DNA of 64,000 nucleotides from Trypanosoma brucei (lineage: Eukaryota). Under the pieces are notes generated by a model. The model had not been told where the DNA came from. It ran no database searches and saw nothing but the letters and a program-made list of their open reading frames with translations. The position numbers and the translations under genes were made by a program. Positions 19,195 through 53,113 of the stretch are shown here, one piece after another. The stretch's first letter is position 1; every line of letters starts with the position of its first letter. The stretch covers positions 2,560,001 through 2,624,000 of the forward strand of contig CM000208.1 in the NCBI GenBank assembly GCA_000002445.1, read 5' to 3'.

Positions 19195-19196
19195 AG

Positions 19197-19227
<31 letters not shown>

Positions 19228-19248
19228 ACACAAACAAACAAACAAACA
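19195..19248. repeat. (CA)n followed by (CAAA)n simple repeat.
   Basis: cacacacacacacacacacacatacacacacaaacaaacaaacaaac. Confidence 0.9.
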
Positions 19249-19508
19249 GTTACCCTCTGCAATCTCCACGGGCCACTGCGCGCACCTCTCCCGCTGAGAG
19301 GGGTGGGTCAAAAAATAAAACAACAATTCACCCACGAACGATAAATCCGCCATACCGACACATGGCCTGGCACACCTCATCACCCTCGCCTGCAAGAGGG
19401 GACAGAATGAAACATAAAAGGCAAAAGTCTAGCTTCCTGCATCCCTCTGCACGCGAATCAAAGGATCTCCCAAACTATCTCCACCGTGTGCTAAGTGCTA
19501 AACGCCCA

Positions 19509-22872: not shown

Positions 22873-24738
22873 TCATGCAACGCGTTGCTCCCGCTTTTCT
22901 ACCCAAAGCAACGGAAGTTTACGTCCTAGCCCCTCCTTCCACACCTCGTCAAGGACGGACTCTCCGGCACGCTGCGACCCCTGTAGCCAACAATGCACGG
23001 AGTCACCAGATGCGATGTTCCTCCCTATTTCCGCCATGTCACCAACCGACACAACCCGCTGAGGAATATAAAGCGAATAATTGCCAACTCGCCTAGTTTC
23101 GTGATCAGCTTCACCCTCCGTTGGAGGAAAGGCCTGTAACCTACGACAGCTTTGATGATATCTCCCCGAAACCGTCCGGGCAATTTCCCGCTGCCTTAAT
23201 GCCATCCACAACCTAGAGAGTGGAAACCGAGACGCTATCCCCTCCAGTAGCGCAGCGGTATCAGGGTCAGGAGGTTTTGCTCCCGAATATACGTCCGATT
23301 GAAGCTGAAGCAATTGTTGCACTGTGCGATTCATACTTTGCTTCGTTACGCCACGTGGAACACCAGCCTTGGTGTTCAACGCTGCGGTGCTCTCTTCGTT
23401 CCAGCGCAAAACGCACCGCACGACGAGGCCCTCAAGTTCCCCCCTACGCCTTTTCGCACCCGCGGAACAGGGAACAACTTGATTTCCATCCTCCACTGTG
23501 GCCCACGCAGCACGGGACCAGCATGATTCATCCTTTCTTTTGGGCGCACCACCGTTTCCCAGAGGGGTATCGTCCCCACTCATGCCCACCAGGATCAAAC
23601 GGAGGGCGGACGATTCAAAATCACAAACATCCACCTGCGGAAATGGCGAACCACCTCGCACAGGCTCGTTTGTTCCCTCAGAGGGAGCACCTAGTTCCCC
23701 AGGGCGAAGACGAGGACAAAAACAATGCAAGCGGCTATTTAGGCCCTCTCTTGCTTTCTCTAGAGGGGAAAACGCATTAACCGCTACACAGTTGTCACTA
23801 ACAATGCTAACCTTTCGCGGAAGCCACACCGCCGCCAGGCGGATGGGCTCCGGAAACAGTCGCGTTCGTCTTCGGCCCTGGATGCCCAAGCAGTGCCAGC
23901 GAAGCAATTTGTCCGAACACGACATGCAGAGGTTTTGCCGACCCTTCCCCGGTTTGACACGGGCTACGAACGGCATATCGTCCACCGGCCAGCACCGGTG
24001 AGCAGCTACCCGGTGGCCATAGCAAACGGTAAAGGAGCCGGGACCATCAAACACGCGAGCGTCCACAAACTCAGGTAGGGTCTTGCCATCGCAGCGAGAT
24101 ACATGCTCCTCTCCAACGAGCAAAGGGTTGCTATCCAATCCGCCGTCGAAAAGGGAACGGCCGCTAGGCGTACTCAGGAGCACATGAGCCCCGCCGAATG
24201 GGGTAGACATCGCACCGCAGGGATACTCTGTGCACACCAAGTGCACGCTCACGCCGGGCCGAAGACGGAAACACTCCCCCACTGCATCACAACTTGCGTC
24301 ACCGCCGGAGAACTGAGGAAAACAATGGTGACGCTCAACGGCAAAATGAAGTCGGTCGTCACCCCGTGAAAGATACGCTGCTGCATCCAGAAGGAATGCC
24401 ACGAGGCCACGCCGGGCCATAACCTCCGCGTGCCCGTCTCTCAGCATCAAATCGGCCTCAACAGTAAACTCCACTGGTTTGTAACCCACACAACGCGTCC
24501 CACTTCCCAACGAGACGCACACAAAACTAGGACCACTAATTTTATCACAGGGAGAGGCGCGGGGCAGTCCTAGCACAAACCCTGCTACCACCTCCCCCCT
24601 ACCATCCAGGGCACTAATTGCACTACAGTCCCAACCAAAACCACGCGGTTGAGAACGGAGGGCTATAGCAAATGCCTCAAGAGGAGTGGCACAACCCGGG
24701 AAACAGTCGTGAGGCACATCCACATGCATCCACTCCAA
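22873..24738 (-). CDS. tRNA-specific adenosine deaminase, ADAT1/ADAR-type (A_deamin domain).
   Basis: Deaminase zinc-ligand and catalytic motifs appear in canonical order: DGHAEV (His/Glu), EYPCG and CMSCSDKLLRWHCLGIQG (the SCSDK..RW signature of ADAR/ADAT1 deaminase domains). Confidence 0.65.
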   Translation of the reverse strand: MEWMHVDVPHDCFPGCATPLEAFAIALRSQPRGFGWDCSAISALDGRGEVVAGFVLGLPRASPCDKISGPSFVCVSLGSGTRCVGYKPVEFTVEADLMLRDGHAEVMARRGLVAFLLDAAAYLSRGDDRLHFAVERHHCFPQFSGGDASCDAVGECFRLRPGVSVHLVCTEYPCGAMSTPFGGAHVLLSTPSGRSLFDGGLDSNPLLVGEEHVSRCDGKTLPEFVDARVFDGPGSFTVCYGHRVAAHRCWPVDDMPFVARVKPGKGRQNLCMSCSDKLLRWHCLGIQGRRRTRLFPEPIRLAAVWLPRKVSIVSDNCVAVNAFSPLEKAREGLNSRLHCFCPRLRPGELGAPSEGTNEPVRGGSPFPQVDVCDFESSALRLILVGMSGDDTPLGNGGAPKRKDESCWSRAAWATVEDGNQVVPCSAGAKRRRGELEGLVVRCVLRWNEESTAALNTKAGVPRGVTKQSMNRTVQQLLQLQSDVYSGAKPPDPDTAALLEGIASRFPLSRLWMALRQREIARTVSGRYHQSCRRLQAFPPTEGEADHETRRVGNYSLYIPQRVVSVGDMAEIGRNIASGDSVHCWLQGSQRAGESVLDEVWKEGLGRKLPLLWVEKREQRVA

Positions 24739-31458: not shown

Positions 31459-34170
31459 TTATAGATAATGCATTGTTGTCCGCAAGTTGCCCCCCAGCGT
31501 TTTCAAATTGGTGAGCGCAGAATACTTACGCCCATACTCCGCTGCGCACTTCAGGGGGAGGGGTAGCGGAAGCGCATCGGTTTTGTTAGGATATAGAAAG
31601 CACATCCCGTACAGGAGAGCCTGTAGCTCTCCAAGATCGAATCCTTTCCGCTTGGAGACGACATACAGCGTAGAGCGGGCGTGACCAAGGGTGCAATTTG
31701 CGCCGGTGAGAAAGAATGCCTCACCAAATTTTTTGTCCGCACCTTCCGCTGTAACGAAACCGCGTGGGGCGTTGCAGTACATCGTGCGGTCATCAGGGGC
31801 TTGGAAAGCAAAGCGCGAGTGCTGATACCGCTGGCCAGCCACAACCGCCCAGCTGCTTCCCTTGAGCACCTCACTCAGGACGTCGACGTCACTCTTGCGG
31901 GCATCAAGCAATTCTCCCTCCGAGGCACAGCCACGCAGAACCAGGTACGCCGACACAGCATTTCCCTTGCTCGTGAAGTGGCTTTTTGCTTCTTGCACGA
32001 ACTCCCCCATCTTCTTAGATATCACCTCGGATGGAGTTGGGGGCCCCCCCTCAGACATCGATGTCGTGTCACAGTCGCTGCCGTCGGCATACAAGGTCTC
32101 CTTCCTGCCATTCACTTGATAATGGTTGCAGTAGGTCGACCACTGTGTGCCCTTCACGTAGAATGACACGAAAGCAACCGCGAAGAACTCCTGCCTGACG
32201 GCGGAAGACTCCGTTGCAACCGAGCGTTGATCCCTCCCAACATCGGCGGCTATTATTAATATTCCGCCGGATGGGTCAGCCTTCGCTAGCTTCGGACAAA
32301 CTTGGTTCACATCTAGGGTCCAATTGAGGCGACCGGTTTTTGCGCATATTTGTTGCGCAACGGCCATGACAATCGACAACTCACGACCTCCCGTTAGGTC
32401 CTTAGCCACGACTTGGCTAAGGGCACCGCCGCCCGACCATGATGCCTTCCACTCTGCATACGGCTCCCTCTCGGGTCGCCGCAGGAACGTCACACCAAAA
32501 ATGTTCTTCCCCAAGCGGCCCTTCGCCTCTTTCAAGCTTCGAACGGGGATGGAATCCCCGAAATTTAGTGGGGCGCTCATGCCATCAAGGTACTTCTTTA
32601 TATTACCGACGACAACAGTTCCCTGCTTGTTGTTTGTTTCGTCATACAATACGACGTCGACTGTCTGTCGCGCACCGGGGTGCCTAAGGTCTTTGAGCTC
32701 CTTCACGAAACCCTGTTGTGAGCTCTCGCTTTGAGGGTTCACTCGTCGAAAACCGTCACCCTTTGGTATCAATATTTCCGGGGACTTCAGCACCTGACCA
32801 TCCACGGAAACGAAATCCTTTCCAAAGGATATTCCGTACGCCTCCAAGAACTTCACGACCCTCCCCCCTTCGTGTTGGATTAGACGTTCAATGACACGCC
32901 TGAGGCGTTGAACACGATCATCAGGAAATATGGAGCACAGCTGCGGAAGTTGCCTTCGGTCTTGCTCATTCAAGGACATCTCGTGCAGCACCTGAGGTGG
33001 GACAAGCACCACCCGCCGCCCGTCGTTCGTCCGGCACTTAAAAAGTGCTTGCTGTGGCTCAATATGAATCCCGTACCGGTCGCGGAAATACTCCACATAT
33101 GTCTGTGACGGGTTTTGTTTGAGGCCCGCTGCATCGCAGGCCTTATTGTCCGTAATATCAAGGACGGTATACATAGTAGCACGGGATTTGTCCACCACAC
33201 TGTATACCTTTTTCTTAATGAAACGCTCGGCGAGCGCTCGTCGGATACTACCGCGTGCTCGCCTCCTTTCATCCTCCATCGCCGTCAAACAGTCCATGGC
33301 CGACGCCACGGGAAGGGAGACGTCCAGCTGCAGGACATCGTTTTCTTTGCCACGGATTACTGTCGAAAACGCCTTCACAGAAACTGCCTCAAATATAGAG
33401 ATGGTTCCTGTGGCATTTTTTTTTCCGTTTTTCAGGTCTACAAACTTTGTACCGACCTTTTCCTCATAACATTCCTGAACGGCACTACCGATCACGCAGT
33501 TCAACTCCATTGTCCTCTCTTTGGGGTTCAACGAACATGATGTCGCCTGCTTCAGCGTAAGCGTGTATGTGTATGTCACCGTTTTCCCCTTCCCTTTGCG
33601 CGCGTTCACGGTCAATTCGTAATTATATTCCTCCACGGGAAGTCTAGTGGGACATATTATCGATGACCCTGTGCAGACGCACATGTTGACGTCAAATGCG
33701 TCTTCGCTACCGCTTTCCTTTCTCATTTTCAACAACATATTCTTCGATGCGAGCACTTTAACCCTTTCCCTGAGGTCGGGTGCCCCATCTTTCATTTCAA
33801 TGGAAAGGGGGTAAATGAAGGCACATTTCCTCGGGTCGATGTACAGAGGGAGGAGGTTTGTCCATGCCTCCACTGGCCGGTCGTACATCCCGGCTTTCGC
33901 AAACGAAACCACCGCATCCCTCTCACGGGTCTGGCCAGTCCGATACGCCCCGTCACCAAAGCCTCCACCACGTCCACCACGGTATCCACCCTCGCCTCCA
34001 CCACGTCCACCACGGTATCCACCCTCGCCTCCACCACGTCCACCACGGTATCCACCCTCGCCTCCACCACGTCCACCACGGCGTCCACCCTCGCCTCCAC
34101 CACGTCCACCACGGCGTCCACCCTCGCCTCCACCACGTCCACCACGGTATCCACGTTCCCAGTCAGACAT
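31459..34170 (-). CDS. AGO1: Argonaute (PAZ/PIWI) protein with an N-terminal RGG-repeat domain. AGO1-like RNAi effector.
   Basis: The N-terminus has six 11-aa GGRGGGEGGYR repeats (33-bp DNA repeats). The C-terminal half has PIWI-like sequence (...LIIAADVGRDQRS..., ...RSTLYVVSKRKG..., ...PLPLKCAAEYGRKYSAL...). The 903-aa length and RGG+PAZ+PIWI layout match T. brucei AGO1 as I recall it. Confidence 0.75.
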   Translation of the reverse strand: MSDWERGYRGGRGGGEGGRRGGRGGGEGGRRGGRGGGEGGYRGGRGGGEGGYRGGRGGGEGGYRGGRGGGFGDGAYRTGQTRERDAVVSFAKAGMYDRPVEAWTNLLPLYIDPRKCAFIYPLSIEMKDGAPDLRERVKVLASKNMLLKMRKESGSEDAFDVNMCVCTGSSIICPTRLPVEEYNYELTVNARKGKGKTVTYTYTLTLKQATSCSLNPKERTMELNCVIGSAVQECYEEKVGTKFVDLKNGKKNATGTISIFEAVSVKAFSTVIRGKENDVLQLDVSLPVASAMDCLTAMEDERRRARGSIRRALAERFIKKKVYSVVDKSRATMYTVLDITDNKACDAAGLKQNPSQTYVEYFRDRYGIHIEPQQALFKCRTNDGRRVVLVPPQVLHEMSLNEQDRRQLPQLCSIFPDDRVQRLRRVIERLIQHEGGRVVKFLEAYGISFGKDFVSVDGQVLKSPEILIPKGDGFRRVNPQSESSQQGFVKELKDLRHPGARQTVDVVLYDETNNKQGTVVVGNIKKYLDGMSAPLNFGDSIPVRSLKEAKGRLGKNIFGVTFLRRPEREPYAEWKASWSGGGALSQVVAKDLTGGRELSIVMAVAQQICAKTGRLNWTLDVNQVCPKLAKADPSGGILIIAADVGRDQRSVATESSAVRQEFFAVAFVSFYVKGTQWSTYCNHYQVNGRKETLYADGSDCDTTSMSEGGPPTPSEVISKKMGEFVQEAKSHFTSKGNAVSAYLVLRGCASEGELLDARKSDVDVLSEVLKGSSWAVVAGQRYQHSRFAFQAPDDRTMYCNAPRGFVTAEGADKKFGEAFFLTGANCTLGHARSTLYVVSKRKGFDLGELQALLYGMCFLYPNKTDALPLPLPLKCAAEYGRKYSALTNLKTLGGNLRTTMHYL
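33957..34160 (-). repeat. 33-bp tandem repeat (x6) encoding the RGG domain of AGO1.
   Basis: The unit ctcgcctccaccacgtccaccacggtatccacc is repeated almost perfectly. Translation GGRGGGEGGYR. Confidence 0.9.
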
Positions 34171-37100
34171 TTTATTTAAATCCTTTTTATTAAGTTGCTT
34201 GTTTGCTTTTTTAGTTGATGACTGAAAGAGAACAAATAGTTTTTATCCTTTTCGCGTTCAACCTGATTACCCGTTCTGTGTTCAAACAAAAGAAAAGATC
34301 AGGTTGAAAGTTTTTTCTGGTAACTTTTTCCCAACAAATAATGAATACTGCTTTTTCATGCCGTTTTTTCCATAATTGATATCACATGTGAGTAACTCTT
34401 AACTGTATATGTCACTCGAACGTCGGGGTTGCTTACCCTATGAATGTGCGCGCTCTGTCGCCGAGTGCCATCATTTTGCTGCTACGAGTAAGTTTCCAGT
34501 CAGACAACATTACGAAAGTACTGCTCCTTCTCTTTGACTCTAACGTTGAGGCTTCTTCACAGACCCTCGTCTAAAATATCGTACACCTGAAACTACCGCA
34601 TGGGTGACCATATATAATACGAGTGTACAGTTGGCGCAAGAAAGAAATTACCACATAAACGTATCTTATTTCGTAAGACGTCGTTCTTCATAGTAATTAC
34701 TTACATGTCAGCCTTGCCATGCGTCAAAAACTGTGCATCCAACTTCTGTCGTCAACTTACCTTGTAATAAGGGTACCAATACATTGTATCCTTGTACAAT
34801 AAGGCCACTAAGTGCAGACCCAAGACTCGAATATGAATAATAAGGGATGAACAGAGCCTACCTGAGTATACTGAGGAACAGTAGCCTTCTAGAAAATACC
34901 TAGGTTACCGTAAAGGTATCAGCACGGCACTTCTATATTGTTCAGTCCAAATATATACCCCTATGACGTTATCACATCAAAGACACGCCCGACGGGGCGC
35001 TACACAGGGTCATCGTACTCATCTTTGAAGAGTGCTAATAACGTAAGTGTAAGGCAATAAACACGCACTTCACAATTATTGCGTGTTTAAACCACCAGTA
35101 TTCCCCGGTGTTTTCCCCGCCCTTCGTTGCCAGTGAATTGAAAGCAATTGTACTGCGTGCTGTTCCTATATTAGTATGTCATTATTGGGATAAGATCTTC
35201 ATAACGAAATCCAAACAATAAGCATTAGTACTCCCAAAACAGCATGCCGAACAAATTGTTAAGGAACAGAAAAGGTCGCATAAATAGTTTTCGAAAAATA
35301 ACAACAGCAATGATATGAAGCGACGTTATCAGTTACGGTGTAAATCTGTCAGTAACAGCTCAAGTGACCCCCGATTACTTGTGCGACGTATCCAACGCCA
35401 ATACTACGGTAACGTAATAGCTAAAATTATTGTGTTCACAACTTTTTCCACCTTTAGATGTTGTACTTGAATGCTTTCAACAATACCGAATAAAAGTATT
35501 TTGAACAACAGAAAAACAGTATAGATAACCATGTCATCGGAAGAGAAGCAGCGATAATCAGTAACAAAATGGACTTGCGACTCCTAACAGAACACTGCGG
35601 CTGGTTAACGGATCCAGTAGTTAAATCAATGCGGGGTACAACAAAGATTTCTTCTAACCACTAACACGATTGTAATGAAAAATAAACAAAAATGTTTCCA
35701 ACGAAAGATGTGAAAAGGAAAAATTCTCAATACCTAATAGGACCATTGAAACACAAGCTCACCATCAAATTCCACGGACTCATAATTCTTAGCATCATTA
35801 GAAGTGATCGATTACACCGTGGACAGCCTGGCAAACATGAAGGGAAAACTGTCCTCCATTCCTTTGTTCTGCCAACCCCCACCTGCCCACAAATACGAAT
35901 ACAACAAAAACCATTAACCGCACACCTCACCGGCGCAACCCGTATGATTCTCGTTGTGAAGAAAACCATCTTCCGCCAAAACAAAGTAACCGATCCCCCG
36001 TGACGGCCGCAAATTACGGGACCGTTTTATCAACTAATCAACCTACGCTTTCAAACAAAACACTCGTAAACAGCAATCACCAAAGCAGGCACTAATATAT
36101 ATATATATATATAGACAGCATGACAGGAGGTTATTAAAATGGCATCACAGTCTCACGAAGCCCTTTTAAGGGAGTGGACAAAAATATACGCATTGTGAGC
36201 CCCCTTTGCCACTAGTAATCCCACACTGCTAAAAAAGTGGAAAACAGTTCGTCACGAGTTGGAGGGAAAGGGGAATTGTCCTTCCCACATGCGTAGCCTA
36301 TACCGGCGACAAAACAATGGGGAGGAAGCAATGTCAAGTTTGTTTAAAACATCCACGGGGGACGTTGTAGCACCCACCCTAAAGGGAATACTGGTAACTA
36401 TGATTTAAAAAAACTCAAGAAGCACCAAGCAGTCACTGGTCACATGTAAATAGTAAGTTCCTAACCTTTTACACCGTATGTCCTCAGCAACCCAATGTCC
36501 CTTTAACAACAGTAAGGTAGAGAAAATCAATAACCAGACAGCTATTTATCATTTTACTTTTGAAAAAATGTGGAGATATGATAATAAGTTCACCAAATGA
36601 TTTAACTATAATTGATATTCCAGATTATTTTTAAATTTGACTCCCAAAGACTCGACTACATGGAGACACATATGTGCAAACGGGCAAATTCCGGGAGATG
36701 CAAACTTCTGTATAAATTTTTGTGATGATTGCTGTAACAATGCTGATGTTCGATGCTTGTGCTATCTCCCTTCGTTCATTTCCAGAGCACAGATCGCAGA
36801 CGGAATGTTCCCTTTATAAACGATACGTTGGCACTACAAGGTACCACAATGGAACATCAACAGGATACTGGTAAAAAACGCAAACGAAAAACGAAAAGTC
36901 ACGGTGGTACGCCCTCCCGTACAAGGCAAACTGGTAGGGGCCTTGAGCAGCCGTTTATACCGTGTATTTGAACCCACAAGCGTACATTGCTAAAATATTA
37001 ACAAGATTAAGCGTCAATGCGGTGAAATCCAGAACCCCTCACAAAGTTGAACCCAGCACTGTCGTAAAGTCCATGCCCTTCAATAAGCATTCATATATTT

Positions 37101-38839
37101 CATGGGCCACAGGGGAGTTAGGACAACAGCAGTCGGCACACAGCAATCAAAGCACGGGCTGTGACAGTGAAGAGAGTGATATACCTGGTGGATCGCATAC
37201 CATCCATGCAAAACGTGGCCTAGGCACAGGAATACTAGACAAAATAAAGCAAAGTTATAAAACTTGCCGGAAGTAGCACAGTGATAATGACAGTACACTC
37301 TCGGGGAAAATATTCACACCAGACAATTTGAAAGCGAACTCCAAGCAACAATGTTCTCATTACATAGATATCAGGCTGCGGGGGTGACATACCGGCAACG
37401 CAATTTTAAAAAAATAGAACAGATGAAAAATATTTAACAAACGACAAAAAACATACAGAAAACAAGTTTCCTATTTTGAGAATTAATATATTTCCCGTTC
37501 AAAACACGCAAAGCCAATTCCGAAAATGGAGCGGCAAAAAAAAAAAATGGAAAATACCTCTCAGGTATCCGGAGCCAAACCACGGCATGTACTCAGTATG
37601 TAAGATGCGTAAATAGCTTTACACGATCGAAATTTGGCAATGCTGTTGTTTTGACTCTATGTAGAAGCGGTCATGTCACAGCAACGGTCAAAAATACTCC
37701 GCGAAACCGATGACCACCAGAACCTCTAAGTGGATTCTGGAAAACAAAAACAAAATCGCCGATTTAAAATAAAAGATGCCCTTTTCGAAATTTTGTTCTA
37801 AAGGCTGCCTGTATCGAGTGAACGGATTTTGTGGCGAGGCTCTTCCCCTTTAGCAGTTCCTTCATAAGCACTCGCGTAGCAAATATCTTAACAGTAGAAT
37901 AATAATGCGTTACCTTCAGAAAGCACAGAAATACTTCATTACCGGGCTCAGAAGGAGATTGCAATTCCACTGAAACCCTTTAGCGGATCCGTAACAAAGA
38001 ATTCGGCGTCTTCCCCTACAACCCCAAAAACGATAACGCAGCACGCCACTATAGTTGCACACCCCCAAAAGGAAGGAAATGACTCTTTCTCCCAAATGAA
38101 TAGGGGAACATGGCTTTACCGGTAATATGCTTCCGAAAATACGGCAAACCAGCATAGACATTTGCTGACACAACACCTCACACAAGGGTAGTCATATGCT
38201 GCGCACCAAAGTGTGCCCCTATGCCGCGACGTTTTAGAATCTTAATTCACTCCGTGCGCACTTCGGTAGCTCAATATTCCAGTGTTTACTCTAAAACAGA
38301 GCTAGCTTCTACAGCAAAGCCAGTCTCCCGTCAGACAGCAAGAAGCCAGAGCAATGCGTTGACGAGAAAACGATGCAAATTTCCTTACACCGACCGATAG
38401 TTTTTTTCGGTAGGATAAAAAAAACTGGTAATATTAAATGGTTCCAGCTTATATTAATGCAGCCCTTCCAAGGCCTTCTCCAACTAAAATATATACAGCC
38501 AATTCTCAAAAAATAGGAGAGGAAACGCAGTGACTCCGTTACTTAACTGCGTATCGAGACGGCTGCGTTGATGGTATCGACAAATGGGTTAACGAAAACC
38601 CCACCACGAGCAACGATCAGCACCGTTGTCACAAACGAAGAATAGCAAAACACATTCATATGAAGAAACCCACGTATCCCACCCGGAACATTTGTCGAGG
38701 GGCAGAGCAACGATAAAACCAACTGTTAGTGACGCCTTGTGTAAAGTGGTTTCGTCATTGTGTTGAAAACAATAAACAGTTGGAAGAAACCAGTATATGA
38801 GAGCGGTAACGCACTCACGACGTATCAGCTAAATAGGGA

Positions 38840-39372
38840 AATGACGATAAACGCAAGGTGATGGCGTTCTCTGCCGCCAACTAACCACAAACCGTTACGC
38901 TTAAGGGGGTGGGCGCACACATACACACACCTCAGCCAGTGAGGTAAACGGGAAATCACTACGTGACACAACGCCAATGAGAGAAAGGGGAATAAGCCCT
39001 GAGGTACAGCTCGCCACTCGCGGTGCACTCGAGGGCGCTGACTTAACACCACACAATCTTTGAAACCGCCTCCTCCTAGACTACAGGAAAGATACCGCGC
39101 ATACCGGTGGTACCAGCGCATAAATGTCCCCATATCACCAGCCACATAGTGACACGACTTTAAGGTTTGCTGAAAAATGCACCTAGCCAGCCTGACTGGG
39201 TGCTGTAATGAAAGTAACTAGGTAGCAATCTTTGCTGGAAATGAAATAGCACGCTCCTAGCAGACAGATGGAGAAAGCAAACAACATTATCCACAACATC
39301 GCAACCTTTCAACTTCCGCTCCGGCTCAGAAAAATGGTACCCTACATGCTTCGACATCAAAGGGCGAAACGA
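38840..39372. repeat. 533-bp dispersed repeat, copy B. It lies inside the 12-kb gene-free region.
   Basis: Same orientation as copy A, which is 17 kb away. The flanking sequence is unrelated. No poly(A) tail or target-site duplication is evident. Confidence 0.9.
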
Positions 39373-41281
39373 CGTACGCCACGCGGCGCAGTCGGCAAGA
39401 GAATCTTTGGCGCTACCCCGCAGCCCCTCGCCACTCTGGAACCTTCGCAGCGCCGTGCTAAGTGGAAGTGCACTGGCAGGCCCCTTTCCCCCCTCTCGGG
39501 GATCAAGCACCAACAAGTGGAAGGAGGTCGGCAGCCCGCACTCCGCCCCCCACCCCTCTCCCTCGTGCAGGCACTTGGAACGCTTACTGAACTATGCCGT
39601 TGCCCTCCTGTTAAGAGTGGGGTGGTCTTTCAACCAATTCAACGTTCACCACCTTCCCACACCCCAGAGGGTATTAGGTGCGAAGATCAGCCGATACCAG
39701 CCGCGCCGCCAAGTGGCACACGTGTCAGCTATGTTTTCCGGACTGATTTCGTTCCTTTTGCGTTCGTTTTTGGTGTTTGACTCTTCGACTTGTAGAAAGG
39801 CCTCTTACGTAGCAGGATCCCTCCGCACACCCGGTGGTCGCGGAACACAGGCACAACGTCTCTGCCGCAGATCCCAAAGGCGATAATTTTCTGATTTATC
39901 ACTTTGTCAACGCGCCCTGTTTGTCTGCAAATGGACACGCACTCGTACCGACACTTTGAGCATCCCCCTAGTTCTCAGTACTATTTCCTCCGAGAAAGGA
40001 TAACTATGAATGCTTCTGCCGCGGTTAGTTTGTGGCTGGTCTCCACGTTGCTGGCCTTTGGCAAGGAGTGTTAGCCCCCTCTTGACCCAGCCACGAACCC
40101 ACAATGCACACCCTGCGCTAGGCTTGGTTATGCACCTACGCTTGCGTCGAAAGGACCCTTGTGTGCCACTGTGCGGGAGCTGTATGTTTCGTTGTTTGTG
40201 GCTTATCTACTCCTATGTTGTCTTTTGGCTGGGTCAATCCGCATTTGGATTGCATTGCTTTACCGTTAGTGACGGGGTCTTTCTTTGGCCGCATTTTCAT
40301 CCAAGAAAATCCGAATTTGACTGCATTTTCCTCCGCGAGACCCACTGAGCCATTTCTTTCAGTCAGAAAGAGTTTTTGACTACGGCGCTTCGTCAGCACG
40401 CGAAAGTTGACGCCACACCAGCCCTTTCCGCCCGTGGAACAAACAATGTGCGGACCCCACATCCCAGGGATGTTCCACCCGTTGTTCTTCGAATAATTGA
40501 GTGCCTCTGGACTCCGATTGTTCTGGCGCTACGGAGGGATCGGTCACCAAGTTGGCGCATGTCATTACTAAGTGGCGTATGGGATGGTGTTGCCTCGGCG
40601 TTCCCTCGTCGGCTCCACCGGCTGCTGAGTGGCAAGGCTGAACTACGGCCCGCCTGCTAACTTTGCGGGCCGATCTTATCAAGTATGCCCATTTCGAAGC
40701 GTTTCTCTTGCCGCCTTCGGGAATCGAGCAGAGTCATATGAAGGCGTCCGCACCTGCGCTGCGGGGTGGTTCCGTTCAGCATTTGTTTGTGGGGACACTT
40801 ATCCTCTTTTCCATTTCGGCCACCTCTTCCCCCGTAGAGAGGGACTGCTGGCGACGTCCTGCCCGACGTCCTGCCCGACGTCCTGCACCCCATCGTTTCA
40901 CTTCTAATAATAGTTACAAAAGTGTGTGTCTGTACGGCAGTGCATATTTCTCCAGTCCCCAATCGCTTCGGTTGCTTTTACTCTTCTGAAGCACGGTTCA
41001 GAGGCGGTTGCTCAGTGCACTTCCATGGAAATAGCGCGCACAGACAGGATATCAGTTGTTTGTCTGAGCTGACGCGGGCATGAAACAGTATCATGCGGTG
41101 CCTTTTGACGGTAGTGACCAAATGTGTCAAGGCCAGCCTCGGGGAATCGTTTTGCTGTTCCTGTTGTGGCTCCTACTTTCCGTGGGGAGGGTAAGCGGAA
41201 GCGAACGTGTCAGTTCAAGGAATTGGAGAAGGTGCACTGTTACGCGGACAAATTCACGTCCGGGAATACTCCAACTAACAA

Positions 41282-41381
<100 letters not shown>

Positions 41382-43415
41382 CTAACCCTTTTTCCCCCTG
41401 CCATGTGCCACACTGACAAAAGGGAGGGAGGGGAACTGTTAAACGGCAACCTTGACTAGGTTTAAGCCCCGAATTTCGCGTCGCCTATTCGCTACGCGCG
41501 ACTACTGTGTGTGTTAGAATTATCGTATTCTTTGTTCATTAATTACTTTTTTTTTTCTGCCTGTGTGTAGAGGATTTTTCGTGCGTTATGAGGGACGGTT
41601 CAGTGAAATGCACTTTCGATTGTTCTGTCGTCGCCGACATTTTTGTCTTCATCGGTGAGGTGTTTTTACCTAATTGGTTGCCCTACTGGTTCCTATATAA
41701 TGCGATGCCGCCCATGAAATATTGTGCTCTTTTCATATTTTTTTAACGTTAATCTTTTGCGACCTTTGCGAAGAACAAGAGCAACTTCTAATGGTAAACA
41801 GAACGATTCCACAACAAAGAAAAGGAAATACAAATAGGCGTAAAAGTTTGATTTCTGTAAGAGAACCAAAAAAAAACACAGAAAGAAAAGGGTGTAAAAA
41901 CAACTGATGTAAGAAAGAGAGAGAAATCTGCAGCAAGTACTGAGGGGGGTAATGGGGGAAAAAACGGAGACGACGCGCCGGCATTTCGAACCTCCTTTGA
42001 GTTTGCGGTTGCTTACGTGTGTGTGTGTGTGTCCCGTTTGCCTACACTCCCCGCCCCCGGGTGCGTAAATAAGGCGACCCCCCCCCCGTCCCTACATCAG
42101 CGAACTGCGCAGGAAGAACCCATGTATATACTTCTCCTCCTTACTGGTTGTGGATGAAAGGATCGTCACCTCTCAGGTTTGCATTGCGCAAGATCGTACC
42201 AGCTTGACGCCTTTCCGAGTGTGCATTGCATGTGCCAAATTACCCTTACGGTGCGGACCGTCGCGTTTGGGGCGAGATTCCTGTAGGCGTCTTGTGAAAA
42301 AGCTGGCCCCGTCCAAGTGTTCGACGGCGCGTCCCGTAATACGACAAATGTGAACAGAAGGGAAGGCTACCGGTAGTGGCCGGGTTCGTGAACCATTAGG
42401 AGTCGTTCCTGAAAATGGCGCGCCAGCGCAGCAACCCATTCACTAGAGGTTTGGATGAATGAAGAACTCTACCTGTACAGGGGTTGTGGATTTAGTGTGT
42501 GACAACATAACTCTCCAACGGCAGTTGACACATAAAACTCAGTTCCTCGTAAATGGCAGCTGCGCAAGGTGCTCCCCTTAATTCGCCGCTTGTGTGATGC
42601 GCTTTGCGGCATCAAACCAATAATGGGGGGAAATGTATTTTCCGTCCTGTATATGGACCCGTTTTTAAGTAAGGATGAACTTTTTAAGGTGCGAAACACC
42701 GGCGTAAATTTCCTCTCTATGACTCCAACATCCTCCAAGCTTCCTCGGATCACTTGGTGTGGGAGCATGGCCCCTAACCTCTTTGCAAAGCTCGGCCAAA
42801 ATGTATGGCCTTGCGTTGCTTCATCTCCGGATGATTCGTGTAAAAAGAAATCTGCGTGTCTTCTATAGGGTTGAAATCAGTTAATCTCCTTGATTCGTGT
42901 CCAGGCGTACGTGTGTGTGTGTGGATTAAAAGCGGCTGTTCATGCGTATGCTTTTTCTTTTTCAAATTAAGGAAGAAAGGGGAAGACATTTTTTAAAACC
43001 ACGCGGAGAAGCGGTGAAATACTAGAAAAAGGCTCCTCCGTTCCACAAAAGTTTGTTGCATATTTTAATGCAATCAGAAAACTGGTGTATCAGTGGTGTG
43101 GAAATCAACCATCAGCATTCCAAACCAAAGATCCGCATCCTTGCAAGTTGTGGTGCCGATTTTGACGCAGCATTCCATCGGACTGCCTTTTTTCTTTTCC
43201 TAACGCACCACTTACCAATTTCCAAAGGTAAAAAAACCACAAAAAATCAAATGGCTGCTAAAAGGGCTTTAACTCCGACTTGTTTGCTTTATCGTGGCAA
43301 AACACGAACAAGCAACACGGTGTCAGTCATCGGAAAGGTGTTGCCAGCGACGGCGCCACTCCGACAGAAACGAAGCAGTAGCGGCTCGTTAGGCAGAGAC
43401 GCTCTGGCGCTCGGT

Positions 43416-43488
43416 TCCTCCCTGGCGCAGTCGGCAGCGCGTTAGGCTGTTAACCTACAGGTCGTTGGTTCGAATCCAACGGGAGGAG
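43416..43488 (+). tRNA. tRNA-Asn (anticodon GTT)
   Basis: Hand-folded cloverleaf. Acceptor TCCTCCC pairs with GGGAGGA. D-arm GCGC/AGTCGGCA/GCGC. Anticodon stem TTAGG/CCTAC around loop CTGTTAA. T-arm GTTGG/TTCGAAT/CCAAC. Discriminator G. Followed by a TTTTT Pol III terminator. Confidence 0.8.
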
Positions 43489-43556
43489 TCTTTTTGCTGC
43501 CCACCTCCGAAAATTCTGGAGGTCACTTTCGCTATAAAGGAAGAACTGAAGCTGTT

Positions 43557-43628
43557 GCAAAAACAGTGGACGAGTAGGGGTTTGAACCCTAGGCCTCCTG
43601 TATGCAAAACAGGCGCTCTACCACTGAG
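43557..43628 (-). tRNA. tRNA-Ala (anticodon TGC)
   Basis: The revcomp reads GGGCGTGTAGCTCAGTGGTAGAGCGCCTGTTTTGCATACAGGAGGCCTAGGGTTCAAACCCCTACTCGTCCA. It has a G3:U70 Ala identity pair, anticodon loop TTTGCAT, and a T-loop TTCAAAC. A downstream TTTTT terminator lies on the minus strand. Confidence 0.85.
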
Positions 43629-43740
43629 CTACACGCCCTTCAACACGGCTAAATCCGTAATATCACATGAGGTTGTTTAGCAACCGTTGTGTACCATCAC
43701 GTAAAGTGGTGTGCTGTGATTGGCGAGAGGGCGTGGCGGT

Positions 43741-43813
43741 GCTCCAGTGGCCTAATGGATATGGCTTTGGACTTCTAATCCAAAGGTTGCGGGTTCGAGT
43801 CCCGTCTGGAGTA
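43741..43813 (+). tRNA. tRNA-Arg (anticodon TCT)
   Basis: Acceptor GCTCCAG pairs with CTGGAGT (G1:U72). D-arm GCCT/AATGGATA. Anticodon stem TTGGA/TCCAA with loop CTTCTAA. T-arm GCGGG/TTCGAGT/CCCGT. TTTT terminator downstream. Confidence 0.75.
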
Positions 43814-43871
43814 CGTTTTCGTGTCCAAAATTATTTCATATTTGTTCGTTTCTAGTTGTTTGCCGGAGAGC

Positions 43872-43943
43872 AGCCTTCCTAGCTCAGTGGTAGAGCGCAC
43901 GGCTTTTAACCGTGTGGTCGTGGGTTCGATCCCCACGGAAGGC
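43872..43943 (+). tRNA. tRNA-Lys (anticodon TTT)
   Basis: GCCTTCCTAGCTCAGTGGTAGAGCGCACGGCTTTTAACCGTGTGGTCGTGGGTTCGATCCCCACGGAAGGCG. Perfect 7-bp acceptor. Anticodon stem CACGG/CCGTG with loop CTTTTAA. T-loop TTCGATC. T-run downstream. Confidence 0.85.
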
Positions 43944-44029
43944 GCTTTTCTACACTGCCGCTTAAGCTAATTTCTTTGCTGGGTACGACATGTAAGCGTT
44001 AGAGGCTTGCTTGGAGGAGGGTTGGCGGT

Positions 44030-44102
44030 GCCCCCGTAGCCCAATGGATAAGGCGTTCGCTTCCTAAGCGAAAGATTGCGGGTTCGAGTCCCGCCGGAGG
44101 TA
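44030..44102 (+). tRNA. tRNA-Arg (anticodon CCT). One acceptor-stem mismatch (C4:A69), so it may be a variant or pseudo-tRNA.
   Basis: GCCCCCGTAGCCCAATGGATAAGGCGTTCGCTTCCTAAGCGAAAGATTGCGGGTTCGAGTCCCGCCGGAGGTA. Anticodon stem TTCGC/GCGAA with loop TTCCTAA. T-arm GCGGG/TTCGAGT/CCCGC. TTTT downstream. Confidence 0.65.
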
Positions 44103-46332
44103 GTTTTCCGGTGCAAAAACTTGCGGATATATGAGATGGTCGCGCGAACGTGGCAGAAGCCGCAGCGGCGTTTGGATTTGGCGGGTCCTTTTTGCGGTGA
44201 ATGCTTGCGGGTTCATAAAACATCCGCGTTGAACCCCGTTTACGCGTGTCGAGGCCGGGGCATACAAATATGACGCCACTTCTTTGGCGCGGCTCCTCGA
44301 GGCTTGGTTGGTTACGCAAGCTCCCAAGCCCGCGGCGATTCGTTGGAAATTTGAGGAGAGGCCCCGATGTGTTCGGCGCTGGCGTTGAGGCCATTGCGAC
44401 GGAAGCTCTACCGGATTTTTGTGTTAAAGGCGCCACAAGTCCGCAAAACCCACTTCACCCTCTGTCGATGCGTTGTTGCGCCAACCAGGGTGGCACAGGG
44501 TGGAGTGGGGGGGGGGGGGGAGAAAAAGATAACCTGTTTTTCGGCGTGTGGCCACACAGTCATGGAGTTTCTTGTACTCAAGCCACGCTTTGCCTTATGA
44601 ATTCTTTCTTTAGGCCCTTGGTTTGTACGATGTCCACTGGCAGGGACAGGGGTTGAAGAAGTCACAACCATAGGAGATGACGACGGTTATTATCATTATT
44701 ATTATTATTTTTTTTTTTTGCGGGGGGCTTTGAAGCGCAGAGACACACACCAATGAGCACGTGTATGCGGTTTCCCCCAAAACTTTCCCCATCCGAGTGT
44801 GTTGCTCCGACGGATTGCCTTACATTACTGAAATTCACGACCGTAAGGGTGAGTCCCAGCCGGCTTCAGCGGCCGCACTGGGGGAGGGGGGAGAGATTAA
44901 GTTGGTCGGGTTTTCTCTTTCCACGCCATCGGCAAACAGCAAAATGGGCAACAGGGGTTAGGATACTCTGCAGAGACGGATCGTACGGGAAAGAGGGGGG
45001 TGACACATTTGCCTTCTAATTCAACACTTGACAATGGCTACGGGAAATTGGGACCATTTTGATCCTCTTGTTCCGCCGAACAACAAAACCAGAAATAACT
45101 ACCCGTTGCCACCTTCAGCGGCTACATATATATATATATTTATGTAAATTTATATGAAGCACACACCGCAGCAACCGGGGCTGTGCCGCTCGGTTGCCCA
45201 TCCACTTTTTTGTGCGTGGGCAACTGGGAAATGGAAGGGAAGGGAGGGGAAGGGTGATGTGTGGAGGAGAGCTCAGGGGATGCCATTCCTTCATCCATCA
45301 AGGGGACTGATGTAATATTTGAAAATGTTACGCGAACCTTCCCACGGCTGCCTCCTAACCTTCCGCCACGTTCTCATCTGCCATAGGCAAATGAAGGTTG
45401 CGGAGCCAAACGAGCGGGGCAGTGCCCTTTACGTAGTCTTTTATCTTGAGCAGACGGAACCGGAGGACGGGAAGGGAACCGTTACACGCGGGACGCGTAG
45501 TTGTGTGCCACAGGCCGTCATTGCCGTTGATATCATCTGCTCCATCTCGGCCATTCCATGTCTAGCCATCAGAGACGACCCCGACCCTCTCTCCACGCGC
45601 TTCTCACTTGCGAGACAAATGACACCGTTTCAAGCTTCTTAGCTATTCACATGGTTCCGATACAGGGGTGCCGAGCCGACTCTCCTCCTCTTTCCGCCGT
45701 GGCCCAAGTTTCGTATCACTTCCATCGAAGTACATGGGTTCGCACTTCGGCCTCGCGTGGATAAATGCCTCTCTCGTCTTAAAAAAAAAAAGAATTGCTT
45801 TGTTTCCTCTCCCCGCGGAAGCGAATATGGGGTGTCCCTTGCTTCGTCATGCAACCTCCTTGACAGGCGGCGGTTCTTTCAAGCTTTACTCTTCGCAAGG
45901 GGGAAAACGTACATGATGATATGATCATTCAAGGACGCAAGAAAAAAGGGGACACCCACACATATACGTATATATACATATTTTTGTACATGTGTCAGCG
46001 CATCTGCATATCATGTCTTGTGGTAAAAACGATGTGCTACAGCTGTTGGGCCTTCCCTGCGAGGAGGAAGTGTACGCTCGTAATTTCAACCCCTCATTTG
46101 TCTACTGAGCACGCACTCATGAGAGGAATGGAAGGAAAGGGGGGGGGGGGGAAAGTAAAACTATGAGGCGCACGGCACATACACGCAGGAGTAGAAATAA
46201 CGGCCACACGTTTATGCTTGACGTCGTCACTGCGACAATACCGTCAGCTTTGGGCCAGCAGAAAAACAACACTCCTTCACCACGCGTGTCCACTTTAACC
46301 GCGGCAAAAAAAGTTCTGCACCTGTTGATGGG

Positions 46333-48045
46333 TTAACGAGGTGATGAAAAGTGCCTCAGAAGTTCTCTTAGTTGCTCAGAACGTACGGCGTCGTGCGTGT
46401 AACGCTGGAGGTCTCCTAAGATCTTTGCAAGCACCTCATCGCGAGTCCTTCCTGACCATCCCCAATTGTCGTATTGCCTCCGGAGCTCCGAATCCTTGAG
46501 AAACCGAAACGCAATTGATTCCCCCAACTCGCCCTCTTCACTGCCCCCTTCCAATGGCGTGACGCCTTCGCCCCTCATGTCGGAGTCTTGTACATCACTT
46601 CCCACTGCTTCTGGGGTTGCCAACAACTCACCTTCATCCAAAAATCTTTCTTTGGGGGCACACGGGCTCTTCTTCCCTTCTTCCTCATCCTCATCCTTCC
46701 ACTTCGCACCATCGGAGAAACTTACATCGACAACCGGCGAATGCTTCTGCAGCGCAAGTCGCACAAGATGCAAAACACTCTGCTTGTTTTTCGTCTTCAA
46801 AGTGTTCACCTCAGCGGACTGATATCTTTTCGGTTGGTACTGCATCACGTTTCCACCATAGAAAAGATTATATTCTTGAAAAAGTTCGTGGCGACAGAGA
46901 TCTCCACAGGTGGGACGCTGCTGAGGGAAAAAGGCAAGGCAGCTGGATATCAAATCAATCCATTTCTGCTGCCGATCCCGCGTTGTGTGCAATCGCCACT
47001 GCTCGTTCATCATTCCAACCAATCGTGAGGGACGTGGAGCGCTCCGGAGGAGATAATTTTGAGCGTTTCCCACAGGCATGAATCTTCGTATATCATCATG
47101 GCTAGGTGTCCCAACAATGTTAAGAATCACTTCTAGTTGTGTGCTAGCAAGTTGTCCATCCCACACCCCTTGTTCATTAAGGGCGGATTCAACATTAAAC
47201 AAAGCTTTCCCTGTAACCATTTCGAAAAGGATGCAACCCACCGACCACACATCAATCGACGGCTCCCCTCCCGAGACATTGGTAACGATCTCAGGTGGCC
47301 TGTAATAGCGCGTGCAGACATAAAAGGTGTCACTTGCTTGGGCGTCCCGTGCAAGGCCAAAATCGGCTATGAGCGCCGTTGATTTGTATGGATCTTTACC
47401 ATGCAAACGAACCAAAATATTTTCTGGCTTTATATCTCTGTGGACGATATTACACTTGTGCAAAAAATCCAAACCAAAACATATCTGAAATGCAAAAACA
47501 ACAGTGACCAGCTCAATGAATTCATCTGTCATGGCCGGTTTACTGCCTGAAGATGATACGTGCTTTATAAAATAGAGCAAGTCACCCTTCATCAGAGGCA
47601 TCACTATATGGAGACTAAATTCGTCCTCTCCGCTCAAGCGATTCACCATAGAAAGGACTTTATCATGGTATTTGGAAAGCTCGTCATTGCGGCTTTGATT
47701 AGGGTATTGAGGCCCTGCGGCGTCGAAGCGGCGGGCGTCCACCAGTGTCGTTGCCCCGTCCCTACCACCTTCATCCTGAGAGAGCACGTTGTCAGCACCG
47801 CTTGGGGTCGCAAACATGTCAAAGTACCCAATCACGTGAGGATGAGCGTCATGGAGGAAAGACATTATATCTATCTCTCTAACGAGGCGGGCGCTTTCCT
47901 GGTTTACAAAGCGCGAAGGGATTGTCTTCACGGCAACATGTTCTCCTGTGAAACGATCTACGTGCTCGCTCACAATACCGAATCCACCCTTGCCAACGAC
48001 CGCAACGTGCTCATACCGCCAAGCGAGTAACGGGACATTGTGCAT
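46333..48045 (-). CDS. Serine/threonine protein kinase, CMGC-like (MAPK/CDK-related) catalytic domain with long inserts.
   Basis: Kinase subdomains are present: VGKGGFGIV...VAVK, HRDIKPENILV, DFGLARD, YVCTRYYRPPE, DVWSVGCIL. Confidence 0.8.
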   Translation of the reverse strand: MHNVPLLAWRYEHVAVVGKGGFGIVSEHVDRFTGEHVAVKTIPSRFVNQESARLVREIDIMSFLHDAHPHVIGYFDMFATPSGADNVLSQDEGGRDGATTLVDARRFDAAGPQYPNQSRNDELSKYHDKVLSMVNRLSGEDEFSLHIVMPLMKGDLLYFIKHVSSSGSKPAMTDEFIELVTVVFAFQICFGLDFLHKCNIVHRDIKPENILVRLHGKDPYKSTALIADFGLARDAQASDTFYVCTRYYRPPEIVTNVSGGEPSIDVWSVGCILFEMVTGKALFNVESALNEQGVWDGQLASTQLEVILNIVGTPSHDDIRRFMPVGNAQNYLLRSAPRPSRLVGMMNEQWRLHTTRDRQQKWIDLISSCLAFFPQQRPTCGDLCRHELFQEYNLFYGGNVMQYQPKRYQSAEVNTLKTKNKQSVLHLVRLALQKHSPVVDVSFSDGAKWKDEDEEEGKKSPCAPKERFLDEGELLATPEAVGSDVQDSDMRGEGVTPLEGGSEEGELGESIAFRFLKDSELRRQYDNWGWSGRTRDEVLAKILGDLQRYTHDAVRSEQLRELLRHFSSPR

Positions 48046-50998: not shown

Positions 50999-53113
50999 TC
51001 AGTCCACTTCCTCCATACCCGACGCACCAGTACTGGAGTTGGCGGCAGCAGCGGCAACGGGTGCCTGCGCTTCCTCCTCTTCCGCATCATCGTCGAGTGA
51101 GAGACCCAATTTGATCATGCGGTGGATACGGTCAGCGTATGCCGTGGGGTCATCAAGTGTAAACCCGGATGTCAGCAGCGAGGTGTCGAAGAGGAGGAAT
51201 ATCAGGTCCTTGGCGGCCTTGTCGTTTTCGTCGGCCTCCACGCGTCGTTTCAGCTCCTTGACGATGGCGTGCGTGGTGTTGATCTCCATGGTCTTCTTCG
51301 ACATCATGTACGCAGACATGCTGGAGTCTCGCAGAGCCTGGTTGCGCATGATCTGTTCCATGTGTGCACTCCACCCGAACTCTGATGTCACGAGAATGCA
51401 TGGTGATGTTGCCAACCGGTCGGACACCACCACCTTCTCCACTTTGTCACCAAGTACCTCTTTCATTGCCTTGCACAGCCGCTCGTATGATGCCTTCTCT
51501 TCTTCCCGCTGTTTCTTCTCTTCCTCCGTCTCCTCGAAGTGTACACCCTCCTTTGTGAGGCACGCGAACTTTTTGTCCTCAAAGTCCTTCACTTGCTGCA
51601 TCACATACTCGTCGATGGGGTCAGTCATGAAAAGTACCTCCATGCCGCGGCGCTTCGCCTGCTCGATGAACGGAGACGTTTCGAGCTTCTTCTTGCTGTC
51701 ACCCGTCACATAGTAGATGCACTTCTGACCATCCTTCATGCGTGTCACGTAGTCCTTCAATGTCGTCATCTCCTCACCGGATTCCGAACTGTGGAAGCGC
51801 AGCAGTTCCATCAGCTTCTTGCGGTTTGTGCTGTCTTCGTGGATGCCCAGCTTCACGTTCTTGCTGAACTGTTCGTAGAACTTCTTGTAGTCCTCCTTGT
51901 TCTCTGCGAGCTCCTCGAAGAGCTCCAGGGCCTTCTTCACAATATTCTTACGGATCACCTTGAGGATTTTGTTCTGCTGCAGGTTCTCACGGGAGATATT
52001 TAGTGGCAGGTCCTCGCTGTCCACCACACCGCGCAGGAAGCCGAGCCACTCGGGGCACAGGTCCTCACAGTTGTCCATGATGAACACGCGGCGGACGTAT
52101 AGCTTGATGTTGTTGCGCTTCTTGTTTGGTTCGAACATGTCAAAGGGTGCGCGCTTCGGGAGAAATAAGATAGCCCGGAACTCCAGCTGGCCCTCCACGG
52201 AGAAGTGCTTCGTAGACAGCTGCTCTTCCCAGTCGTTCGAGATGGCCTTGTAGAAGGAGGCGTACTCCTCCTTTGTTACATCTTTCGGGTCGCGCGTCCA
52301 CAGTGGCTTGTGCTTGTTCTGCACCACAAACTCCTGCTTCACTTCCTTCACCTTTTTGGTTTTCTTTTTCTTGGCATCGGCATCATCGCCGTCCTTCACC
52401 TCTTCCACCTTTGGCTCCTCACCTTCCTCAGCCTTTTTGGCGGCCTCTTCGTCTTCGTCTTCATCTGTCACCTCCTTCTCAGTGGTGTTCTCCACCATTA
52501 ACTCGATGTCGTAGCCGATAAATTCGGAGTGTTTTTTGATGAGGTCCTTCAGCCGCCGCTCCTCCAGGTATTCCTGCTGGTCTTCCTTCAAATGCAAGAC
52601 GATACGCGTACCGCGCTTCAGGTCACAGTCGGGCGTGGAGGTTACAGTGAAGGTACCACCTGCAGAGGATTCCCACGTGTAGGCATCGTCCTCGTTGTTC
52701 TTCGACACAACGGTTACGCGGTCTGCGACAAGGTAGGCAGAGTAAAATCCGACGCCGAACTGCCCGATCATGCTCATATCGCCACCGGCCTCCAATGCCT
52801 CCATGAATGACTTGGTACCGGAGCGAGCAATCGTACCAAGGTTGTTCACCAGGTCGGCTTTCGTCATACCGATGCCACTGTCCTCCACCGTCAGTGTCTT
52901 ATTTACTCGGTCGGGGATTACGCGAATGCGCAAATGGGGTTCATCTCCGAGCACGGACTGGTTCGTCAGACTCTGGTACCGGATTTTGTCGCACGCATCT
53001 GACGAATTACTAATTAGCTCGCGAAGAAAAATTTCCTTGTTTGAATAGAAGGTATTAATAATAAGGGACATTAGCTGATTGATTTCAGCCTGGAATGCGA
53101 ATGTCTCCGTCAT
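50999..53113 (-). CDS. HSP83: Heat shock protein 83 (HSP90 family), cytosolic.
   Basis: 704-aa translation with the HSP90 N-terminal ATPase motifs ([37 protein letters not shown]), a charged linker and the C-terminal MEEVD. The sequence matches T. brucei HSP83 as I remember it. Confidence 0.95.

Follow-up and report, generated by a model that had tools for sequence, protein, structure and literature searches.

The 12-kb spacer upstream of AGO1 on Trypanosoma brucei chromosome 10: a probable head-to-tail junction of two RNA polymerase II transcription units at a tRNA gene cluster

In a window of 64,000 nucleotides from chromosome 10 of Trypanosoma brucei TREU927 (contig CM000208.1, forward-strand positions 2,560,001 to 2,624,000), all 20 long open reading frames (ORFs) taken as genes are on the minus strand, including the argonaute gene AGO1 and the gene of a CMGC kinase. 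These two neighbours are separated by a spacer of 12,162 bp (positions 34171–46332 of the window), against 59–1,906 bp for the 18 other spacers. An earlier note, made from the letters alone, had pointed to the exceptional length of this interval and to its same-strand flanks, both of which hold, and had proposed that RNA polymerase II (Pol II) terminates and re-initiates at an internal tRNA locus within it. The locus raises the question of whether transcription stops and starts again in the middle of an array of genes all read in the same direction, or whether the gap has another explanation, such as a broken gene, a decayed mobile element or simple read-through. As described below, it is very probably a Pol II termination and re-initiation boundary, namely the head-to-tail junction of two polycistronic transcription units (PTUs).

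The tRNA cluster in published maps of termination and initiation

The gap contains five tRNA genes at 43415–44103 (Table 1), on which ARAGORN and Rfam concur, with Rfam scores (RF00005) of 62.9–72 bits against a threshold of 29; the tRNA cluster described in the earlier note is thus present. A run of four to five T, a Pol III terminator, stands after each gene, and tRNA-Ala(TGC) is the only one of the cluster co-oriented with Pol II transcription. Table S8 of Staneva 2021 (PMC8559703) lists tRNA genes for Asn, Ala-tgc, Arg-tct, Lys-ttt and Arg-cct at Lister 427 Chr10_core 2645688–2646379, in an order and with a spacing that agree with those of the cluster in our window. According to the same source, these five genes overlap 'sTTR_16', a single, head-to-tail Pol II transcription termination region (TTR), and are bound by all the RNAPIII/TTR-associated factors; it also reports that Pol I or Pol III genes are often found at head-to-tail TTRs and may block the advancing Pol II. 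A minor discrepancy concerns the anticodon of tRNA-Asn, given as 'ggt' in Table S8 and called GTT by ARAGORN in all the species examined; the former is probably a typing error.

On the initiation side, Table S14 of Kolev 2010 (PMC2936537) enters a minus-strand unit, Tb10.406.0020 (AGO1) to Tb10.406.0650, which begins 'next to tRNA', a start class that rests on the enrichment of 5'-triphosphate RNA; by this entry the downstream Pol II unit has AGO1 as its first protein-coding gene. The preceding unit is given as 'Tb10.26.0740 - Tb10.329.0030, minus, Divergent'. We infer that Tb10.329.0030 is the kinase, because it is numbered next to Tb10.329.0040, the ABC protein, and the kinase would close the upstream unit as its last protein-coding gene. 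Moreover, Table 1 of Cliffe 2010 (PMC2896530) reports for wild-type cells that base J, a mark that the earlier note had expected here, is present at 10/10 head-to-tail junctions on chromosome 10. Since the published termination, start-class and base J data agree, we consider with high confidence that the first reading of this interval was correct. The boundary is real but ordinary, and it is already present in the literature and in the catalogues for this locus.

We propose the following course of transcription. Pol II would transcribe the upstream unit, comprising HSP83, the ABC protein and the CMGC kinase, which would end past the kinase, and it would halt at, or just before, the five active Pol III tRNA genes. 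With TBP, RPC1 and other factors bound to them, these genes could act as a nucleosome-depleted roadblock, in chromatin that would carry H3.V, H4.V and base J. A non-divergent start region, probably within the ~4 kb past the tRNAs, would then re-initiate Pol II, and the new primary transcript would first yield Tb10.NT.124, Tb10.NT.123 and Tb10.NT.122, three ORF-poor, AT-rich, trans-spliced and polyadenylated RNAs, after which the AGO1 mRNA would be processed. Initiation is placed in the 4.2 kb between 39234 and 43415 because this stretch is bounded by the tRNAs and by the first mapped splice site; no processed transcripts are listed in it in the tables of Kolev 2010.

Within this candidate region, the sense strand carries a (TG)48 microsatellite of 106 nt, which is the longest sense-strand run composed only of G and T in the 64 kb and lies 2 kb past the tRNAs, before the first splice site is reached. 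In Wedel 2017, coding-strand elements rich in GT were shown to be capable of driving directional Pol II initiation together with the deposition of H2A.Z, and the tract may be taken, as a weak lead, for a GT-rich promoter element. A TG-rich run is also found in T. conorhini, 0.8 kb past tRNA-Asn, and T/G runs occur in T. theileri. The contig of T. equiperdum ends at this (CA/TG) microsatellite, so that the tract also breaks assemblies.

Several points weigh against the boundary or against the details built on it. The published evidence was taken from tables, and it combines termination and chromatin data from Lister 427 with RNA data from procyclic-form cells. In Staneva 2021 some factor-bound tRNA genes are outside any TTR, and therefore tRNAs alone are not sufficient. 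The identification of Tb10.329.0030 as the kinase is by gene numbering only, and in T. vivax the 10 kb that follow the kinase orthologue contain no tRNA. As for the start region, the (TG)n tract is length-polymorphic, with ~48 units in TREU927 vs ~13 (~36 nt, locus 16664–16699) in T. b. gambiense, and the G+T fraction of the sense strand across the whole candidate region is only 0.45–0.58.

The extreme form of these doubts would be that there is no boundary, that Pol II reads through, and that the gap is a long kinase 3' untranslated region (UTR) joined to an AGO1 5' leader, with the tRNAs embedded in it. The common strand of the flanking genes would suit such an arrangement, as would the T. 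brucei tRNA genes that bind the factors without overlapping a TTR; however, the tRNAs of this locus are themselves annotated in sTTR_16, the AGO1 unit is catalogued separately, with a start next to tRNA based on 5'-triphosphate RNA, and base J is reported at all the head-to-tail junctions of the chromosome. Thus, read-through appears highly improbable.

A different proposal, compatible with a Pol II boundary, is that the interval is also, or mainly, a replication origin or a chromatin-domain boundary, by loading of the origin recognition complex (ORC) or of cohesin at the tRNAs. ORC1/CDC6 sites map to PTU boundaries. Published work has found cohesin enriched at tRNA-containing PTU boundaries in T. 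brucei, but tRNA-to-tRNA contacts in only ~25% of the tRNA regions, and this evidence is general, not locus-specific; we regard such a role as rather unlikely.

Table 1. Features of the gap, its flanks and other spacers of the window. Positions are those of the window; adding 2,560,000 gives the v4 coordinate of TREU927 chromosome 10 (GeneDB v4), shown in brackets where the source lists it.
Feature	Position	Strand	Remarks
Tb10.NT.121	14259-15118	-	Kolev Table S7
AGO1, Tb927.10.10850 / Tb10.406.0020	31459-34170	-	PAZ and Piwi domains
Putative AGO1 splice-acceptor and 5' UTR region	34171-34316	-	pyrimidine-rich tracts and AG dinucleotides
Tb10.NT.122	34317-35473 (v4 2595473-2594317)	-	1156 nt, 1.81 RNAs per cell, Kolev Table S7
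Tb10.NT.123	35595-37262 (v4 2597262-2595595)	-	1667 nt, 1.25 RNAs per cell, Kolev Table S7
Tb10.NT.124	37330-39234 (v4 2599234-2597330)	-	1904 nt, 0.2 RNAs per cell, Kolev Table S7
533-bp repeat	38840-39372	.	99.4% identical to 21866-22398, same orientation, self-BLAST
Candidate Pol II start region	39235-43414	-	4.2 kb, tRNA cluster to first mapped splice acceptor
Tb10.329.0010, 'hypothetical protein, unlikely', 170 aa	39268-39780 (v4 2599268-2599780)	+	Trypanozoon-only cluster
(TG)48 microsatellite, sense strand	41277-41382	-	Tandem Repeats Finder (TRF): (CA)48.5 on + strand
tRNA-Asn(GTT)	43415-43490	+	ARAGORN, Rfam
tRNA-Ala(TGC)	43566-43638	-	ARAGORN, Rfam
tRNA-Arg(TCT)	43741-43814	+	ARAGORN, Rfam
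tRNA-Lys(TTT)	43873-43945	+	ARAGORN, Rfam
tRNA-Arg(CCT)	44029-44103	+	ARAGORN, Rfam
Putative 3' UTR of the kinase and termination zone of Pol II	44104-46332	-	between kinase stop codon and sTTR_16 tRNAs
CMGC kinase, Tb927.10.10870	46333-48045	-	Pkinase domain
Tb10.NT.125	59141-59692	-	Kolev Table S7
Tb10.NT.126	63349-63767	-	Kolev Table S7

Contents of the gap

As stated in the earlier note, no start-to-stop ORF in the gap exceeds 170 aa, the longest being that of Tb10.329.0010. The longest stop-free stretch is of 213 aa, just above the 95th percentile of shuffled sequences, which gave 116–202 aa. The scarcity of long ORFs is what a random sequence with the composition of the gap gives, and the unusual trait of the interval is its length as a spacer. 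The composition is not uniform: the part at 34171–38800 is AT-rich (GC 0.412), as had been noticed, and the part at 39400–41100 has a GC of 0.544 and a CpG observed/expected ratio of 0.89. The latter had been described as a GC/CpG-rich island, a description that does not hold: the coding sequences of the window have a GC of 0.532 and a ratio of 0.96, and the ratios of the whole gap and of the other spacers are 0.96 and 0.88, so the stretch lacks the CpG enrichment of an island. It is conspicuous only beside its AT-rich neighbour.

This coding-like GC, together with the 213-aa stretch that slightly exceeds the 95th percentile of the shuffles, could suggest that a protein-coding gene is concealed in the gap, disrupted by a frameshift, a misassembly or recent pseudogenisation. 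The other tests argue against it. A codon-usage scan of both strands, trained on the genes of the window, revealed no coding-like run (mean score −7.6 for windows of the gap, +10.4 for real genes); all stop-free segments of 40 aa or more, in six frames of 34171–43414, gave only low-complexity Pfam artefacts; tblastn with all 20 proteins of the window found nothing; and tblastx against the corresponding loci of T. theileri, T. vivax, T. cruzi and L. mexicana returned only the tRNAs and microsatellite or low-complexity matches. The same sequence recurs in two independent assemblies of related taxa: the gap is colinear in T. b. gambiense DAL972 (98.4–98.5% identity) and in T. equiperdum (99.4–99.6%), and therefore an assembly artefact is unlikely. 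Moreover, Tb10.329.0010, the sole annotated ORF, is listed without detectable transcript in Table S2 of Kolev 2010 (PMC2936537) and is not a real gene, and a 102-aa ORF carried by a repeat in the gap has no homologue beyond the T. brucei group. The earlier note had named an expressed protein gene in the interval as evidence that would overturn its reading; none was found by codon usage, Pfam, tblastn or tblastx, and the existence of such a gene can hardly be credited. Between the tRNAs and the kinase (44104–46332), neither an ORF nor a Pfam or Rfam match was found. A search of the gap for other non-coding RNA genes (snRNA, 7SL, snoRNA) with Rfam, at the gathering threshold and at E<5, returned only the tRNAs and sub-threshold noise.

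The gap is nevertheless not gene-free in every sense: the expression used in the earlier note stands for protein-coding genes, but Table S7 of Kolev 2010 lists three processed RNAs, Tb10.NT.122, 123 and 124, that cover 34317–39234. They tile the AT-rich part of the gap with a GC of 0.41–0.44 (coding 0.53), and the breaks between them, of 67 and 121 nt, are those usually seen where polyadenylation is coupled to the splice site that follows. In our window, a minus-strand AG is found directly upstream of all three 5' ends, preceded by pyrimidine-rich sequence, as is to be expected if these are trans-splice acceptors. The longest ORFs across the three RNAs are of 32, 80 and 102 aa; for Tb10.NT.122, the longest ATG-ORF was recomputed as 32 aa (34691–34593), equal to the figure given by Kolev. 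T. brucei long non-coding RNAs (lncRNAs) have been described as trans-spliced, polyadenylated, GC-poorer and less abundant than mRNAs (Guegan 2022). The three RNAs fit this general description, with low coding potential, no codon bias and no conserved peptide, the 102-aa ORF being confined to the T. brucei group; a caveat is that Tb10.NT.122 co-sediments with polysomes and shifts under translation inhibition (Kolev 2010, PMC2936537). Further RNAs of the same table, Tb10.NT.121, 125 and 126, lie in other spacers of the window, all on the minus strand.

The origin of the gap, or of its T. brucei-specific excess, was also considered. It might be a decayed mobile element (ingi, RIME, DIRE or similar) without transcriptional role, the boundary being only at the tRNAs, and a mobile-element origin of the extra length would be compatible with the boundary itself. 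The leader between the tRNAs and AGO1 measures 9.2 kb in T. brucei and 3.2–4.7 kb and 4.2 kb in T. theileri and T. conorhini, respectively; these leaders share no sequence outside the tRNAs, and the gap contains a dispersed repeat of 533 bp, all of which would agree with an insertion. However, the six-frame segments of 34171–43414 gave no match to a reverse transcriptase, an endonuclease or any other Pfam domain (a T. brucei repeat library and the whole genome were not searched), and three separate RNAs are processed from the AT-rich 5 kb.

The repeat itself does not look like an element of this kind. Its two copies occupy different intergenic regions 17 kb apart and have sharp ends, and they lack a poly(A) tail, an A- or T-run and a target-site duplication. 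In T. b. gambiense the 102-aa ORF of the repeat is annotated only twice, each time as 'hypothetical protein, unlikely', so that a high-copy element is not indicated, and no homologue of it was found outside the T. brucei group. Overall, we judge the mobile-element explanation quite unlikely. The copy in the gap carries the splice-acceptor site of Tb10.NT.124.

Two further identities were considered for the repeat and rejected. A likeness to the 5' signature of RIME/ingi would have made it the end of such an element, and was discarded for the absence of tail, duplication and homologues and for the two ORF copies; sequence snippets of it also gave no match in the literature. A pseudogene paralogous to the gene at 22873–24738, beside the second copy, was discarded because protein and DNA similarity stops at 533 bp.

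The locus in other trypanosomatids and its flanking genes

Orthologous loci were fetched through homologues of the kinase and of AGO1. In T. brucei the kinase stop codon is followed by 2,229 nt, the five tRNAs (689 nt), 9,244 nt and AGO1. In T. cruzi, 376 nt after the kinase stop, the five tRNAs of T. brucei are found in the same order and orientation, and the contig ends 2.7 kb further on; AGO1 was not recovered for this species in the retrieval of homologues. AGO1 has reportedly been lost in T. cruzi. In T. theileri, 639 nt separate the kinase stop from Arg-CCT, Lys, Arg-TCT and Ala, tRNA-Asn is missing, and an extra inverted tRNA-Ala(TGC) lies 1.4 kb past the cluster (locus 14416–14487); AGO1 follows after 3,150–4,664 nt, a length made uncertain by two N-runs in the leader (locus 14598–15000 and 16116–16511). 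In T. conorhini the cluster is split: Arg-CCT alone adjoins the kinase, 307 nt from its stop (locus 4808–4880), and Lys, Arg-TCT, Ala and Asn are upstream of AGO1 on another contig (locus 5299–5838), where the genes further upstream are different, unrelated ones (UbiA and a hydrolase) and the last tRNA is 4,162 nt from AGO1. As the cluster is split between two contigs, a rearrangement breakpoint falls inside it. tRNA-Arg(CCT) is the closest to the kinase in every examined species that has the cluster. The neighbours of the kinase locus differ in L. mexicana.

Because the kinase is followed by the tRNAs in T. theileri and T. cruzi, and by Arg-CCT likewise in T. conorhini, the tRNA boundary is old within Trypanosoma. 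In T. brucei, T. theileri and T. conorhini, AGO1 comes after an ORF-free leader of 3–9 kb, and it is the first gene past a multi-kilobase leader of this kind wherever it was found. A comparison of the leaders of four species for conserved non-coding elements gave only microsatellite and T-run matches, and the extra ~5 kb of the T. brucei leader is lineage-specific. In T. vivax, ~9.9 kb past the kinase orthologue (locus 11702–21598) contain no called gene or tRNA; an uncalled antisense ORF of 427 aa is found there (locus 15574–16857), without Pfam match.

The recurrence of leaders in three Trypanosoma lineages, despite their unconserved sequence and the rearrangement in T. conorhini, led us to consider that the ORF-free leader from the tRNA barrier to AGO1 could be a functional module rather than filler, an idea that we regard as improbable. 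If it were true, the three RNAs could set or buffer AGO1 expression; possible routes would be that AGO1 is kept outside the H2A.Z start domain, that the RNAs are regulatory lncRNAs, or that the 32-aa ORF makes one of them a micropeptide mRNA.

As regards the genes at the two sides, the AGO1 ORF is identical over 903/903 residues to the TREU927 argonaute-like protein in a homology database. Pyrimidine tracts and AGs sit between the 3' end of Tb10.NT.122 and the AGO1 ATG, where the AGO1 splice acceptor is expected. Just inside the start codon, a 33-nt tandem repeat (5.9 copies, 97% matches, 33961–34154) encodes a repetitive N-terminal Arg/Gly-rich region of RGG type. The identity of the kinase as Tb927.10.10870, of the CMGC family, is taken from PMC10415143; the protein is identical in T. 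equiperdum and shows 98% identity in T. b. gambiense. The conversion of coordinates places Tb10.406.0140 (2567188–2569122) on the window ORF 7188–9122 and Tb10.26.1080 (2610999–2613113) on the HSP90 ORF at 50999–53113. HSP83 (HSP90) is present as one copy in the v4 window, and T. b. gambiense has at least three tandem copies before the ABC gene; for this reason, the array is probably collapsed in our window. Within the upstream transcription unit, this heat-shock array lies at the distal end.

Significance and relation to known systems

For T. brucei, a boundary of this type is textbook knowledge and not a discovery, and no new question is opened by it. The value of the analysis is mainly that of a check, in which a reader of the sequence alone recognised a boundary that was then confirmed by the catalogues from chromatin immunoprecipitation sequencing (ChIP-seq) and RNA-seq. 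The comparative points, namely the synteny, the breakpoint and the position of AGO1, are small additions, and the two-copy repeat is a minor one; they agree with the idea that boundaries of this type are units of genome organisation that persist for long and are favoured as points of rearrangement.

Head-to-tail junctions of Pol II units, with a single TTR and a non-divergent transcription start region, are known at Pol III genes in T. brucei from Kolev 2010 and Staneva 2021 and, reportedly, from Siegel (2009) and Müller (2018). The present locus resembles them in its same-strand flanks, in the tRNAs of its spacer, in sTTR_16 and in the start 'next to tRNA'; it is a catalogued example from which nothing essential differs, with a leader that here is long (9.2 kb) and processed to three ORF-poor RNAs.

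A broader likeness is to the tRNA insulators and roadblocks of yeast and human, in which Pol III complexes create nucleosome-depleted barriers and recruit cohesin or condensin. Those insulators separate single genes or heterochromatin domains, whereas the barrier considered here would separate whole polycistronic units; moreover, according to published work, T. brucei has no identified TFIIIC orthologue. The GT-rich promoters of Wedel 2017 may have a counterpart here in the 106-nt run of only G and T on the coding strand, and the TG-rich run of T. conorhini is similarly placed, but the tract here is a simple dinucleotide microsatellite of polymorphic length in surroundings that are not GT-rich. 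Finally, the RNAs of the leader are similar to the T. brucei lncRNAs of Kolev 2010 and Guegan 2022 in their splice-acceptor and poly(A) sites, low GC, low abundance and short ORFs, and the co-sedimentation of Tb10.NT.122 with polysomes sets it apart as atypical of the Guegan set.

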